Assembly (NCBI GenBank): GCA_022791945.1
Contig: JAAVZY010000021.1
Location: forward strand, 3,295-67,294
Source: Oscillospiraceae bacterium
Lineage (GTDB): Bacteria > Bacillota > Clostridia > Oscillospirales > Ruminococcaceae
Direction: 5' to 3'
DNA length: 64,000 nucleotides
The notes beneath the pieces were generated by a model. That model was not told where the DNA came from. It saw only the letters and a program-made list of their open reading frames with translations, and did not search any database. This document shows positions 1 to 62,390 of this stretch, in pieces. Made by a program: the position numbers and the translations under genes. How positions within the stretch are numbered: position 1 is the first letter of the stretch; each line of letters begins with the position of its first letter.

Positions 1-285
1 GACTCTGTCTCGCGTCTCTGCGATGCGCCGCTGGCGGCGCATCGGGGATCTAAATCCCCTTGGAACCCGTAATTTTAAGGGCGGAAAAATGGGGTTAAGT
101 CTGTACAGACTTCCTTGCTCCTGCCACGCAGAGAGTTTGATTCCCGCAGAACATTTTTTCGTAAAGAAAAAAGCTCCTCCCTGCGTGCGGGGTAGTTCCC
201 GCGACGCAGAAATCATGAGCGCAGCAGAACACGCTCGAGACTTTCTGCGTCGTACGGTCTGCGCCGCCTATGGGGATGAATGCCT
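1..285. repeat. Mosaic multi-hairpin repeat, partial copy (cut by window edge, truncated at right)
   Basis: Shares modules gatgcgccgc-tg-gcggcgcatc, ggggatctaaatcccc, aagtctgtacagactt, ttttttcgtaaagaaaaaa and gcagcagaacacgctcga in the same order as the copy at 5065-5695. Confidence 0.85.
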
Positions 286-311
286 TTTTTCATATTTCAT
301 CCGCTCTTTTG

Positions 312-1208
312 TCAGAGATCGTGCGGCTCTCTGGTTTCCTGGAACAGCAGGGAAGCGGCCGGCAGCAGATCTCCTCCAAAGACGGAGGAGATCTGAAAGG
401 AAATCTCTCTGGCGTTGAGGGCCTGGCGGAGCGCGCCGGTGATCAAAGGAAAATCTTCCCAGGCGTGCCCGCCCAAAATCAGCCCGTCCGCCTGGAAACG
501 GAGGCACCAGGGCACCAGCAGTTCTGCCAGCCGCTGGCCAAATTCCTGGCAGAAGATACCTGCCTGAAGATCTCCCTTTCGGGACAGCCGAGCCAGCTCT
601 CCCAGCTCGGGGATGCCCGACAGGGCGGGGAGGGTGTTGGTCAGCCGCCGAATGCCGGAGGCGGAGGCGTACCGCTCCGCTATGGAGTTTCCCAGGGGCT
701 GGCGGTACAGCCATCCGTTCTCCGGCACAAGGGGGCTGTCCTTGACAAGCTGTCCCTCCGCGAAGAAGCCGGCTTCCATTCCTGCATCCAGATAGAGGGT
801 GACCGCCCGTCCCAGCTCCTGACCCTCGCCCCAGACGCATTCCCGCAGGCAGAACAGCTCTCCCAGGCTGGAGAACCGCAGCTCCCGTCCGCCGCCGATC
901 CGCCACTGCAGCTCCTCCCGGATGGATACCCCGTAGACGCCGCTTCCCGGCGTCAGGAGCCGGGAAAGCTCGCCGCCGGATTCAAAGGGGCTGGGGAGGA
1001 TGAAGCTGCTCCCCGCAGGCTCAATCCCCAGGAAACGGCACTGCCGCAGGCTGTCCGAAAGGATCGCGGTCAGACGTGCCAGCAGGCCTTCCGCACCCTG
1101 CCCGAACTCCGCCGGATACTCCTGACGGAGCAGGAAGGCCTCTCCCTGCACAGCGGCAGCGGTGACAGCGGCACTGCTCAGCAGCAGCACCAAATATGCC
1201 TGCTCCAA
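312..1208 (-). CDS. ROK/ASKHA-like sugar-kinase family protein (tentative)
   Basis: 298-aa ORF with even codon usage. LYLDAGMEAGF and LILGGH segments resemble ROK phosphate-2/adenosine motifs. The N-terminal DxGGT motif is not evident, so the call is weak. Confidence 0.4.
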   Translation of the reverse strand: MEQAYLVLLLSSAAVTAAAVQGEAFLLRQEYPAEFGQGAEGLLARLTAILSDSLRQCRFLGIEPAGSSFILPSPFESGGELSRLLTPGSGVYGVSIREELQWRIGGGRELRFSSLGELFCLRECVWGEGQELGRAVTLYLDAGMEAGFFAEGQLVKDSPLVPENGWLYRQPLGNSIAERYASASGIRRLTNTLPALSGIPELGELARLSRKGDLQAGIFCQEFGQRLAELLVPWCLRFQADGLILGGHAWEDFPLITGALRQALNAREISFQISSVFGGDLLPAASLLFQETREPHDL

Positions 1209-1250
1209 GGCACAGTTCTCCTCCTTTGCAGCTGGAGTTTCTGCGTGATC

Positions 1251-1729
1251 GAAGGGCTAAGGCCGCGAGAGCTCTGCTCTCGCGCTCTCGCCAAGGGGAC
1301 GCGTCCCCTTGGATTCCCATCTTTTTAGGGGTTATGGGGGAGCAGAATTTCGGTCCATGCCTCGCTGATACTCCCCGCAGAGACGATCGCCCGCCTACCC
1401 ATTTTTTCGTAAAGAAAAAATTCATCCCCACGAGCGGGGCAAGACCTGCGACGCAGAAAGTTTCGAGCGTGCTCTGCTGCACTCGGAATCCCTTGCGCAA
1501 ACTCTGTGTGGCACAGGGAGTGCCCCGCACGCAGGAGGGAGCTTTTTTCTTTACGAAAAAAGCGTACTGCGGGAATCAGACTGTCTGCGTGGCAGGAATC
1601 GGGAAGTCTGTACAGACTTGACCCCACCCCTTTTCCACCCCTAAAAAAGCCCTTAAAAAAGATGGGAATCCAAGGGGGGCTAGGCCCCCTTGGCAGAGCG
1701 CGAGACAGCGTCTCGCGACCTTGCCCTTC
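1251..1729. repeat. Mosaic multi-hairpin repeat, full copy (479 bp) with ~75-bp terminal inverted repeats
   Basis: The left end gaagggctaaggccgcgaga..tctcgcg..ccaagggga-cgcg-tccccttggattcccatcttttt is the reverse complement of the right end aaaaagatgggaatccaaggggg..cccccttgg..cgcgagacagcgtctcgcgaccttgcccttc. Confidence 0.9.
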
Positions 1730-1748
1730 CGAACGCGCAGAGCGGGCG

Positions 1749-60239: not shown

Positions 60240-60244
60240 AGGAA

Positions 60245-60385
60245 TGGGAATCTAAGGGGAATCCCTTCCCGATGCGCCGCCAGCGGCGCATTTCAGAATT
60301 CGGCGAAGACGAATTCTTAGGTGCGTTGTGAAACGACGCACCGCGGAGCCCAAAGCAGAGCCTCGGGGTCTTGGCCCTGCTCCAA
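60245..60385. repeat. Mosaic repeat, partial copy (end modules only) between gatA and gatB
   Basis: gggaatctaaggggaatccc, gatgcgccgccagcggcgcat, gaattcggcgaagacgaattc, gtgcgttgtgaaacgacgcac, then a degenerate terminal stem. Confidence 0.8.
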
Positions 60386-60425
60386 GTGCCGGACAGAATT
60401 TACGCAGGAAAGGAATGCTCGTTGA

Positions 60426-61853
60426 ATGGACTATGAAATGGTCATCGGCTTGGAGGTTCACGCAGAGCTTTCAACCGATTCAAAAATATATTGCAGCTGC
60501 CGGAATGAATTCGGCCTGGAAGTCAATACCCGCTGCTGCCCCATCTGCACCGGGATGCCTGGCACCCTTCCCACCCTGAATGAAAAGGTGGTGGAGTACG
60601 CGGTGAAAATGGGCTGCGCTCTGGGCTGTTCCATCAACCGGGTCTGCAAGCAGGATCGAAAGAACTATTTCTATCCGGATTTGCCCAAGGCTTACCAGAT
60701 TTCCCAGTTTGATATCCCCCTGTGCGAAAACGGCCATGTGGATATTCTGGTGGACGGGGAGGAAAAGCGGATCGGCGTCACCCGGATCCACATTGAGGAG
60801 GATGCGGGCAAGCTCCTCCATGGGGACAGCTTCGCTGGCTCCCTGGTGGACTTCAACCGGTGCGGCGTACCGCTGATTGAGATTGTCTCCGAGCCGGATA
60901 TGCGCTCCTCCAGGGAGGCCAAGGCCTACCTGGAAACCATCCGTTCCATTTTGCAGTATCTGGACATTTCCGACTGCAAAATGCAGGAGGGTTCCATCCG
61001 GTGCGACGTGAATGTCTCCGTTATGGAGAAGGGGAGCGGCCGGTTCGGCACACGCTGTGAGATGAAAAATGTCAACTCCTTCAGCGGCGCGGTGCGGGCC
61101 ATTGAGTATGAGGCCGCCCGGCAGATTGCCATTCTGGAGCAGGGCGGAACCATCCAGCAGGAAACCCGCCGCTGGGATGACGCCAAGGGCGAAAGCTTCT
61201 CTCTCCGGAGCAAGGAGGACGCTCACGATTACCGGTACTTCCCCGAGCCGGATCTGCCCACCATCGTGCTGGAGGAGGGGTATGTGGAGCGGATACAGGC
61301 ATCCATTCCTGAGCTGCCCAACCGGCGGATCGCCCGGTATATCCGTGACTACGGGCTCTCCCAGGTAGAGGCTACTTTATTGGTAGAGGCTATGGATAAG
61401 GCGGAGCTGTTTGAAACCGCGGCGGCGGAGAAGAAGTGCTCTCCGCGGATTCTCTGCAACTGGCTCTTGGGGAACATTTCCCAGTATCTGAATGAAACAG
61501 GCAAGACCCTGGAGCAAACCGGCATCCGGGCGGAAGGACTGACGGAGCTGCTGGCGCTGATTGAAGGCGGAAAGATCTCCAATGCAGTTGGAAAGTCTGT
61601 CTTTGACGAGATGCTGGAAACAGGAAAGACTCCGGGAGAGATTGTAGCGGAGAAGGGGCTGACCCAGATTTCCGACGAGTCCGAGCTGGAGGCTGTTGTC
61701 CGGAGCGTGATGGACGCCAACGGAAAATCTATTGAGGACTATCACAACGGAAAGACCAACGCTTTGGGCTTCCTGGTGGGCCAGTGCATGAAGGCTACCA
61801 AGGGCCAGGGAAACCCGGCTAAGATGAAAGAAATCCTTCTGAAGCTGCTCTAA
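60426..61853 (+). CDS. gatB: Asp/Glu-tRNA amidotransferase subunit B
   Basis: N-terminus YEMVIGLEVHAELSTDSKIYCSC and VNSF..AIEYE are characteristic of GatB. 475 aa. Confidence 0.95.
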   Translation: MDYEMVIGLEVHAELSTDSKIYCSCRNEFGLEVNTRCCPICTGMPGTLPTLNEKVVEYAVKMGCALGCSINRVCKQDRKNYFYPDLPKAYQISQFDIPLCENGHVDILVDGEEKRIGVTRIHIEEDAGKLLHGDSFAGSLVDFNRCGVPLIEIVSEPDMRSSREAKAYLETIRSILQYLDISDCKMQEGSIRCDVNVSVMEKGSGRFGTRCEMKNVNSFSGAVRAIEYEAARQIAILEQGGTIQQETRRWDDAKGESFSLRSKEDAHDYRYFPEPDLPTIVLEEGYVERIQASIPELPNRRIARYIRDYGLSQVEATLLVEAMDKAELFETAAAEKKCSPRILCNWLLGNISQYLNETGKTLEQTGIRAEGLTELLALIEGGKISNAVGKSVFDEMLETGKTPGEIVAEKGLTQISDESELEAVVRSVMDANGKSIEDYHNGKTNALGFLVGQCMKATKGQGNPAKMKEILLKLL

Positions 61854-61857
61854 GCGT

Positions 61858-62390
61858 CCTCTGCGTGGCCGAAGGGCAAGGCCGCGAGACGCTGTCTCGC
61901 GCTCTGCGGTGCGTCGTTTCACGACGCACCTAGGAATTCGGCTTCGCCGAATTCTGAGATGCGCCGCTAGTGGCGCATCGTGGACGAGTCCCTTTGGAAT
62001 CCCATCTTTTTTAAGGGCTTTTGAAGGGTGGAAAAGGGGTGGAGTCAAGTCTGTAAAGACTTCCGTCCTCCTGCCACGCAGAGAGTCTGATTCCCGCAGT
62101 ACGCTTTTTTCGTAAAGAAAAAAGCTCCCTTCTGTGTGGCACAGTGTTTGACCCCGCAGAGAGTGTGTGTGCGGCAGAACACGCTCAAAGCTTTCTGCGT
62201 CGTACCGATTGCGCCGCTCGTAGAGCTGAACTTTTTCTTGACGAAAAAGTGGGTAGGCGGGCGATCGGCCACGCAGGGAGTATCAGCGAGGCAGGGACCG
62301 AAATCCTGCCCCCATAACCCCCAAAAGATGGGAATCCAAGGGGACGCGTCCCCTTGGCGAGAGCGCGAGAGCAGAGCTCTCGCGGCCTGG
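61858..62390. repeat. Mosaic multi-hairpin repeat, full copy with inverted triple-hairpin cassette
   Basis: cctctgcgtggcc-gaagggcaaggccgcgagacgctgtctcgcg, gtgcgtcgtttcacgacgcac, gaattcggcttcgccgaattc and gatgcgccgctagtggcgcatc at the left. ccaaggggacgcgtccccttgg..cgcgagagcagagctctcgcgg at the right. Confidence 0.9.

Follow-up and report, generated by a model that had tools for sequence, protein, structure and literature searches.

What is the hairpin-rich repeat that recurs every few kilobases along a chromosome segment of an Oscillospiraceae bacterium, and how did it come to be there? The question is raised by a 64-kb window, that is, the whole stretch of DNA analysed here (64,000 nt), for which a first-pass annotation had described 11 full and 4 partial copies of a modular repeat making up about 10% of the sequence. 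A repeat search and nhmmer, the latter run with a model derived from the copies, recovered all of them (11/11 full and 4/4 partial), together with one additional solo hairpin absent from the earlier listing, and the family totals ~6.6 kb, or ~10% of the window, as first estimated. Both orientations are indeed present, with 7 full copies on the plus strand and 4 on the minus strand, and full copies occur about once per 5 kb at fairly regular spacing. A comparable density is found across 120 kb more of the same species; in the window and five further loci, the repeats identified by nhmmer account for 10.5% of 167 kb. The length first given, 460–665 bp, proved too narrow, as the HMM envelopes of 32 collected full copies span 413–692 bp and around two thirds of these copies exceed 500 bp. 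Their G+C content is 58%, and the pairwise identity between copies has a mean of 74% and a maximum of 85%. The instances of the window are collected in Table 1. They do lie after stop codons, but their presence at "almost every operon boundary" was overstated, since there are 16 instances among ~50 intergenic spaces, a rough count taken from the ORF map.

Table 1. Members of the repeat family along the 64-kb window, with strand and method of detection.
Position	Strand	Feature	Remark	Method
1..291	+	Partial copy, left arm and centre	Cut by window start; starts ~36 nt earlier on the parent contig (L057 6989-7315)	nhmmer
1246..1729	-	Full copy between two minus-strand genes	Genes: SDR 1749-2513 and ORF 312-1208	nhmmer
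5065..5665	+	Full copy with large central optional module	Begins few nt from Ser/Thr kinase stop codon (5064)	nhmmer
11273..11780	+	Full copy lacking most of right inner arm, gap between TPR/RCC1-like gene and yukD/essC	RBS of next gene few nt past element end	nhmmer
20970..21455	+	Full copy between two WXG100 genes	Immediately 3' of TAA stop	nhmmer, folding
23478..24027	+	Full copy in convergent gap between plus-strand FHA gene and minus-strand VWA_CoxE gene	Antisense strand annotated in public assemblies as 200-aa "hypothetical protein"	nhmmer
28598..29266	-	Full copy, longest of the window, gap between HEAT-repeat gene and MoxR gene	All optional modules	nhmmer, folding
32681..33109	-	Full copy, gap between fucose isomerase and SWIM genes	Short left-end type	nhmmer
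37199..37727	-	Full copy downstream of canonical terminator (37853-37883) of gene 37901-39628		nhmmer
43359..43566	-	Partial copy, one arm		nhmmer
47061..47691	+	Full copy; right arm with the three optional hairpin modules in inverted order	Left T6/A6 hairpin replaced	nhmmer
55773..55828	+	Solo CCAAGGGG..CCCCTTGG hairpin followed by T-run (terminator-like)	Upstream of ligA	nhmmer
57903..57960	+	Short arm fragment, ligA-gatC gap		nhmmer
58266..58757	+	Full copy, gatC-gatA gap	Gap 13-30 nt in relatives	nhmmer
60235..60388	-	Half element, one arm with three optional hairpins, gatA-gatB gap	Gap 15-61 nt in relatives; strand call ambiguous because the arms are inverted repeats	nhmmer
61858..62393	+	Full copy, gatB-rhaA gap		nhmmer

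Every copy is an imperfect global palindrome in which short hairpin modules follow one another in a fixed order; the repertoire comprises a dozen types or more, several of which may be present or absent or be placed in either arm. The left end reads GGGAAG(A/G)CC followed by a C(G/T)CGAG..CTCG(C/A)G hairpin, and the right end is its inverse. The terminal inverted repeats noted at first are present as entire inverted arms, well over 100 nt long and themselves composed of hairpins, and the palindromes listed at that time were all found again and are all recurrent. The sequence TTTTTTCGTAAAGAAAAAA has 9 exact occurrences in the window; of the 11 full copies, 10 contain the 25-mer CGCTTTTTTCGTAAAGAAAAAAGCT without a mismatch. 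On folding, the copy between the two WXG100 genes forms a near-continuous foldback with a dG of -131.9 kcal/mol (z -10.5 vs shuffles); the z value of the longest copy is -7.6.

The hairpin stems are maintained via compensatory changes. The set of 15 distinct terminal hairpins is 97.8% paired and shows double changes in 4 of 9 pairs, with a covariation score and a percentage paired that were reached by 0/500 shuffles. In seven copies CTTTTT..AAAAAG stands in place of TTTTTT..AAAAAA, and the variant stem CCAAAGGG..CCCTTTGG is present in six. The RNAalifold consensus of 32 full copies gave a covariation term of only -0.61, a near-zero value which arises because hairpins of unequal length fall out of register in the global alignment; for the same reason, the module-level count is the informative one. 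Within one copy, the left and right CCAAGGGG hairpins are usually unlike when compared by eye, so that the arms are not homogenised. Beside the palindromes, seven blocks (163 nt) are 94–98% conserved, vs 77% in the remaining core columns. These blocks represent ~160 nt of non-palindromic sequence and include a 59-nt and a 36-nt block; one that is fully conserved, TGGGTAGGCGGGCGATCG, contains GTAG and then a G+C-rich near-palindrome.

The copies encode nothing. All six phases hold open frames, which shift from copy to copy, and a Pfam domain was found in none of ten of the longer element-derived database "proteins", in agreement with the early remark that no credible ORF is present. Translations of the elements nevertheless populate protein collections, though with only 115 pseudo-ORF representatives among 1.84 billion proteins, which is in line with a narrow range. 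Between 55.3 and 62.6 kb, promoter-like and terminator-like sites are not in excess. Rfam returned 0 matches at gathering score over the whole window; in E-value mode, one copy gave sub-threshold matches, mostly to miRNA hairpin families, the best reaching 23 bits vs a gathering score of 53. Phage and plasmid collections held no match to the family, and its description was not found in the literature searched. The view that this is not a named family thus still stands.

Whether the copies are old fixtures or arrivals is answered by the ligA-gatCAB region. In the window, the ligA-gatC, gatC-gatA and gatA-gatB spacers measure 104, 552 and 186 nt, while the matching spacers are 73, 30 and 15 nt in the relative locus L036 and -11, 13 and 17 nt in L042; between gatA and gatB, the relative with 91% GatB identity has 61 nt. 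The ligA-gatCAB cluster is compact and element-free in relatives whose GatB identities are 91%, 84% and 80%, the same spacers being empty (13–73 nt, or overlapping genes), and the element HMM had no match in any relative locus examined. In one Oscillospiraceae species, therefore, the copies have been inserted where a short spacer separates a stop codon from the RBS that follows. The family seems to be confined to this species-level lineage, represented by an "Oscillospiraceae bacterium" MAG. At JGI, one metagenome contig matches the family and viral contigs gave 0 matches. A scan of genome contigs with the 19-mer TTTTTTCGTAAAGAAAAAA, which does not bear on the range, yielded 29 chance matches in unrelated, mostly AT-rich genomes, none of which has the element. 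A low-GC island at 50–54.5 kb, which carries an integrase, has no copy, and this supports an expansion older than recent gene acquisition.

With somewhat better than even confidence, we regard these repeats as "foldback" mobile DNA elements that are non-autonomous and form a lineage-specific family, MITE/BIME/BOX-like in behaviour and outside the named families. Their spread would have occurred in trans, through an enzyme whose gene lies elsewhere in the genome. This enzyme would recognise terminal hairpins, conserved blocks or both at the DNA level, whether as double-stranded palindromes or as extruded or single-stranded hairpins. The mosaic would have arisen via inter-copy recombination together with nested gain and loss of hairpin modules. 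Operons of the gatCAB type would be read through the elements, which lack a canonical promoter or terminator and would for that reason be tolerated as insertions; an effect on mRNA stability or processing, if any, would be a by-product.

The MITE-like reading proposed at the outset fared unevenly. It was to fail if copies proved fixed at orthologous sites, and the empty sites in the three relatives favour mobility; on the other side, no target-site duplication and no partner transposase was found. The former was sought beside 23 copies with two recognisable ends, each TIR being extended to its own end, by a search that a 2–3 bp or decayed duplication could escape. As for the latter, the 184 kb examined contain no transposase whose ends match; the only transposase-like genes there, IS3/rve fragments and an integrase of Tn916 type, do not adjoin an element. 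Within the species, no presence/absence polymorphism was shown, the other assemblies being 99.6–100% identical and of the same clone; the only differences, a few between L053 and L054, lie at contig ends inside elements and are assembly artefacts. The copies have diverged from each other, to a mean identity of 74%, and so give no sign of current activity.

This picture could also come from a REP/BIME-type system, in which the short hairpins would be the mobile or recognised units. A HuH tyrosine transposase, RAYT-like or IS200/IS605-like and with one gene in the genome, would handle them in single-stranded form, and the 0.5 kb units would be very large mosaics, in effect super-BIMEs or REPIN-like doublets. 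We consider this unlikely, yet it has points in its favour: the hairpin modules are found alone or in blocks, and in one arm or the other, the stems covary, the solo hairpin upstream of ligA and the half element between gatA and gatB are readily accommodated, and the missing target-site duplication is what HuH enzymes lead one to expect. REPs are imperfect palindromes of 20–40 nt with a conserved 5' GT(A/G)G, and RAYTs have been described mainly in Proteobacteria. The main, recurrent hairpins of the present family have no conserved GTAG head, GTAG being found in block TGGGTAGGCGGGCGATCG only, where it recalls the GT(A/G)G head of REPs (PMC2817692). No RAYT or Y1 transposase gene was seen in the window and seven further loci (184 kb), in which a single genomic copy is easily missed. 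The family resembles BIME/REP and REPIN-RAYT systems in its G+C-rich palindromic units, inverted orientation and mosaic build, in its sites at gene 3' ends and within operons, in its compensatory stem changes and in the lack of target-site duplication (PMC2817692, PMC3116915). However, its unit is ~10 times longer, it combines at least a dozen hairpin types in fixed order rather than alternating one REP palindrome, and its host is a Firmicute.

The orientation of the copies introduces a further explanation. In the window, 9/9 testable copies are co-oriented with their flanking genes, and on the window's contig (100 kb) this holds for 12/12 copies between co-directional genes, on both strands, which the foldback mobile-element model does not predict. 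A host-serving RNA element would account for it: the foldback in a polycistronic mRNA would act as an RNase III or processing site, a 3'-exonuclease barrier or an attenuator, punctuating operons and setting the relative expression of neighbouring genes. Such a role fits copies placed exactly between a stop codon and the next RBS, the gatCAB cluster included, as well as the very stable folding, the seven conserved blocks, and the lack of a promoter-like site in the copies, by which downstream genes need read-through. On other contigs of the same species, however, 2 copies are co-oriented vs 7 antisense, giving 14:7 overall, or 14:5 when selection-biased copies are excluded, and a transcription-coupled orientation rule was rejected. 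So was a replication-strand rule, as both strands are used in a window of uniform GC-skew sign. Relatives also manage without elements at the same sites, and no Rfam family matches. On the forward strand, stem mismatches are balanced (45 G·T/T·G vs 37 A·C/C·A), with no sign of one-strand selection for G·U pairing in RNA; this balance, and the lack of a general orientation rule relative to genes, favour DNA-level over RNA-level palindromes. An RNA role is accordingly regarded as rather improbable.

A role at the DNA level need not involve mobility. IHF and gyrase bind BIMEs, and IHF binds Correia elements. By analogy, the A/T-rich T6/A6 hairpins and the conserved blocks, set in G+C-rich DNA, might be binding sites for nucleoid or DNA-topology proteins, kept by the host for chromosome organisation. 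Conservation that is strong, symmetric and strand-independent, and the regular spacing of the full copies, are in line with this proposal; the closest relatives, however, are entirely element-free, and there is no known protein partner. We judge it very unlikely.

Returning to the foldback mobile-element reading, the likeness to BIME/REP, BOX, Correia and MITE elements pointed out earlier, with a unit that is longer and richer in hairpins, holds on closer comparison. Prokaryotic MITEs, among them Correia, ERIC, Chunjie and QMITE, are typically <500 bp and AT-rich, with TIRs of 4–30 bp and direct repeats flanking young copies (PMC10969869). The present family shares with them its non-coding, intergenic nature, TIRs, high copy number, common truncated copies, very stable predicted secondary structure and empty orthologous sites in relatives, but differs in length for around two thirds of the full copies, in G+C content, in arms >100 nt built of hairpins, and in that no direct repeats were found beside the 23 copies and no parent IS in the 184 kb. 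Eukaryotic foldback (FB) transposons likewise have a long imperfect inverted repeat, arms made of shorter repeats and mostly gene-less copies; they belong to another domain of life and their arms are tandem sub-repeats rather than ordered hairpins, so the comparison is an analogy only. BOX elements measure ~100–300 bp, and similarity in sequence to the present family is not expected. In pneumococcus they are built from three module types of defined sequence, A, B and C, arranged as boxA-boxB(n)-boxC, and resemble the family, by description and in architecture only, in their Firmicute host, modularity, variable module number, complementary ends that form a foldback, non-coding nature and location near genes, whereas the present elements are longer and have many more module types and long conserved non-palindromic blocks (PMC3049150).

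Other candidates were set aside. An integron attC site is an imperfect palindrome following each cassette ORF, in a single orientation, among mobile accessory genes and with an adjacent integrase. A cassette array was rejected here, as the flanking genes are housekeeping ones (ligA, gatCAB, ftsZ, era/recO), syntenic in element-free relatives, and the elements take both orientations. Elements derived from IS200/IS605 (PATE-like) have sub-terminal hairpins without TIRs and a strand bias relative to replication; this reading was rejected too, given the TIRs and the use of both strands under uniform GC skew. Readings as a group II intron, a retron or CRISPR were discarded on grounds of anatomy and because Rfam gave no match.

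A more speculative proposal, to which we would give only a small chance, is that the family is an actively maintained "hairpin construction kit" and not decaying junk. It would be either a Firmicute counterpart of REPIN-RAYT, with a dedicated enzyme for which the terminal hairpins and the invariant 59-nt and 36-nt blocks would be the recognition sites, or a set of domesticated, orientation-dependent foldbacks punctuating operons. The latter, if true, would explain why 12/12 copies are co-oriented with their genes on one contig of 100 kb while the trend is reversed on others.

One non-coding family at ~10% of a bacterial chromosome is unusual, with copies even inside essential operons, and it offers a natural case for studying how a compact genome copes with so much repeat DNA, as well as the means by which large hairpin-rich elements are mobilised in Firmicutes. 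There are practical consequences as well. Public short-read assemblies of the species mostly break at the elements; 70 of the 77 database blocks holding rhaA, and 61 of the 67 holding the kinase gene, have no contig >5 kb. No fewer than about 115 "hypothetical protein" clusters in public collections are translations of the repeats, and with a model of the family this gut lineage would be better binned, scaffolded and annotated. There is no sign of restriction avoidance, the rarity of palindromic restriction-type hexamers outside the elements being that of the Markov expectation. The hexamers CTCGAG, ACGCGT and CCTAGG are concentrated in the elements.

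A nucleotide HMM, trained first on four copies and later on eleven, recovered all 11 full-length and four partial copies listed in the first-pass annotation and added one solo hairpin. The copies sum to about 6.6 kb, which bears out the earlier estimate that some 10% of the window (about 60% G+C) is repeat, and in a repeat search they fell into direct and inverted families that overlap. Ten of the 11 full copies contain the 25-mer CGCTTTTTTCGTAAAGAAAAAAGCT without a mismatch, TTTTTTCGTAAAGAAAAAA has nine exact occurrences in the window, and a 36-mer of the element reads TTTTTCTTTACGAAAAAATGGGTAGGCGGGCGATCG. 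Exact-protein look-ups assign the window to a 102.5 kb contig from the MAG of an uncultured 'Oscillospiraceae bacterium' (HFE43_ locus tags; also GCA_950088005.1). The organism, for which a mouse-gut source is a guess, is a Firmicute and has Spo0A-like, WXG100/EssC and SASP-type genes; the closest named GatB, from Paludicola, is 77% identical.

Copies elsewhere were sought with a protein query, the translated antisense pseudo-ORF of one element. It drew 102 'hypothetical proteins', none with a Pfam domain, and only 115 matches in an exhaustive search of 1.84 billion protein representatives. At least about 115 such clusters in public protein collections (45-316 aa) are repeat translations in shifting frames, and none of the ten element-derived proteins scanned had a Pfam domain. 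Contigs around five of the matches, together with both ends of the window's contig, supplied about 120 kb of further DNA of the same species, giving 32 full copies in all, a density of about one per 5 kb and an element coverage of 10.5% over 167 kb. Most public contigs of this species reach just 2-5 kb and break off within an element.

Alignments of 11 and 32 copies revealed modules in a fixed order, in which either arm can hold the optional ones (table). A single strand is predicted to fold into one long foldback with side hairpins. One hairpin module type, judging by the hairpin upstream of ligA, may double as a terminator or derive from one.

Modules of the element, and features of the window with their coordinates
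Feature	Position	Strand	Description
Module 1			terminal hairpin C(G/T)CGAG..CTCG(C/A)G, after GGGAAG(A/G)CC or GAAGGGCAAGGCC
Module 2, optional			three-hairpin block: GGTGCGTCGT-N4-ACGACGCACC, GGAATTCGGC-N4-GCCGAATTCC, GATGCGCCGC-N3-GCGGCGCATC
Module 3			CCAAGGGG..CCCCTTGG hairpin, tip variable
Module 4			purine-rich stretch
Module 5			AAGTCTGTACAGACTT
Module 6			59-nt block with T6-CGTAAAG-A6 hairpin at its end
Module 7, optional			central module, about 110 nt
Module 8			centre GCAGAA..TTCTGC
Second arm			same features inverted, including T6-CTTTACG-A6, TGGGTAGGCGGGCGATCG and an optional GGGGACGGGCGCAAGCGCCCGTCCCC hairpin
Copy	20970-21455		predicted fold dG -131.9 kcal/mol, z -10.5
Copy	28598-29266		three-hairpin block in left arm; predicted fold z -7.6
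Copy	47061-47691		three-hairpin block in right arm
Half element	60235-60388
Solo hairpin	55773-55828		added by the HMM
Free-standing hairpin	55798-55819		within the span of the solo hairpin; CCAAGGGGGCGTGCCCCCTTGG hairpin then GTTTTCATTC, upstream of ligA; intrinsic-terminator-like
Zinc-ribbon protein ORF	6599-7210		contains the 51-nt units
51-nt units	6895-7080		three in tandem, 83-88% identical
Type VII secretion locus, Firmicute type	11800-23500		YukD, EssC-like triple FtsK/SpoIIIE ATPase, three WXG100, TPR protein, FHA/VWA protein
200-aa ORF	23465-24067	-	repeat translation, called in several assemblies
Gene cluster	24033-32577	-	VWA_CoxE, DUF5682, MoxR AAA ATPase, HEAT-repeat, SWIM zinc-finger
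631-aa ORF	48100-49995	-	glycosyltransferase 2 plus TPR; contains the 9-nt array
9-nt array	49320-49958		long array, 28 overlapping register copies; 69% G+C stretch
Low-GC island	50-54.5 kb		44-53% G+C, against about 60% elsewhere
Tn916-type tyrosine integrase	50226-51500	-	in low-GC island
rve-domain transposase fragment	near 52.4-52.9 kb		in low-GC island

Rfam gave no match at the gathering score and, in E-value mode, only sub-threshold matches, mostly to miRNA hairpins. Nothing similar to the element was found in phage and plasmid collections; the 25-mer occurs in one JGI metagenome contig and in no viral contig. The family behaves like MITEs (PMC10969869), REP/RAYT/REPIN (PMC2817692, PMC3116915) and BOX (PMC3049150) as defined in these sources, yet in every case one or more defining features are lacking or could not be matched here, and it is therefore filed under no named family. 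It belongs with the interspersed palindromic repeats known from bacteria but is new in form, set apart by the length and G+C richness of the element, the large library and fixed order of its modules, and its 10% share of the genome.

On balance, the family is best read, with some reserve, as a non-autonomous foldback mobile element that has expanded in a single lineage of Oscillospiraceae. On this reading, the terminal hairpins and invariant blocks would be what is recognised, at the DNA level, and the insertions would be tolerated for being inert in transcription. In the window, the ligA-gatC-gatA-gatB spacers measure 104, 552 and 186 nt and are occupied by a fragment, one full copy and half a copy, respectively, with another full copy after gatB. 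The same spacers are 73/30/15 and -11/13/17 nt in the relatives with 84% and 80% identical GatB (48-49% G+C), and the gatA-gatB spacer is 61 nt in the 91% relative (57% G+C); the element HMM had zero matches in these three relatives. No target-site duplication was seen beside 23 copies, and no transposase associated with a copy was found in the window or the further same-species loci. The main rival, a REP/BIME-like system that depends on an HuH enzyme, would account for the missing duplications as well as the free-standing hairpins, and is held to be unlikely. Presence/absence polymorphism was not observed among the other assemblies, all of which are the same clone; differences at the contig loci L053 and L054 were rejected as contig-end artefacts.

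Many copies start 0-8 nt past the stop codon of the upstream gene and stop a few nucleotides short of the next ribosome-binding site. By our own ORF calls, full copies lie between co-directional (16), convergent (7) or divergent (3) genes, a few assignments differing under database gene calls. Operon punctuation at the RNA level is regarded as quite unlikely: forward-strand stem mismatches are balanced (G·T 45 vs A·C 37), giving no sign of one RNA strand as the selected molecule. Promoter-like or terminator-like sites showed no excess across the gatCAB elements. Two elements lie within the type VII secretion locus, close to which a Ser/Thr kinase and a VWA protein are encoded, and one at its end; another splits the VWA_CoxE-to-SWIM cluster between the MoxR and HEAT-repeat genes. 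The low-GC island carries no element, and none occurs between 47723 and 55773.

On the window's 102.5 kb contig, all 12 full copies between co-directional genes are co-oriented with them (window 1214-62428; contig ends L056, 11568-21248, and L057, 1-7024). Replication direction was ruled out as the cause, since co-orientation holds on both strands. On four other contigs (L045, L049, L051, L053), seven of nine copies are antisense to their flanking genes. This between-contig difference is significant (Fisher p about 3e-4, calculated by hand), and the overall bias, 14 co-oriented to 7 antisense, or 14:5 minus copies subject to selection bias from the search method, is not.

Stems remain paired despite a mean pairwise identity of 74% between copies (maximum 85%). 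Fifteen distinct 21-nt terminal hairpins, collected with a pattern that left the inner three pairs unconstrained, are 97.8% paired, and in four of the nine pairs both sides have changed; none of 500 shuffles equalled these hairpins in covariation score or in percentage paired. Compensatory variants include CTTTTT..AAAAAG in seven copies and CCAAAGGG..CCCTTTGG in six. Seven blocks, together 163 columns, reach 94-98% conservation, compared with 77% across the remaining 260 well-occupied columns; two invariant blocks are 59 and 36 nt long. Such uneven conservation is at odds with uniform decay of dead copies and points to selection, acting either on the source elements through their propagation or on individual copies through a function for the host. 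A nucleoid-protein binding role is considered very unlikely.

Three hexamers are concentrated in elements over the 167 kb: CTCGAG (48 vs 5 outside), ACGCGT (22 vs 4) and CCTAGG (10 vs 1). Restriction avoidance was rejected, since their rarity outside elements fits Markov expectation, and the concentration is therefore a compositional effect. Elsewhere in the window, the tandem 51-nt units are a coding repeat of 17 residues, and the array of 9-nt periodicity is probably a coding tripeptide repeat.
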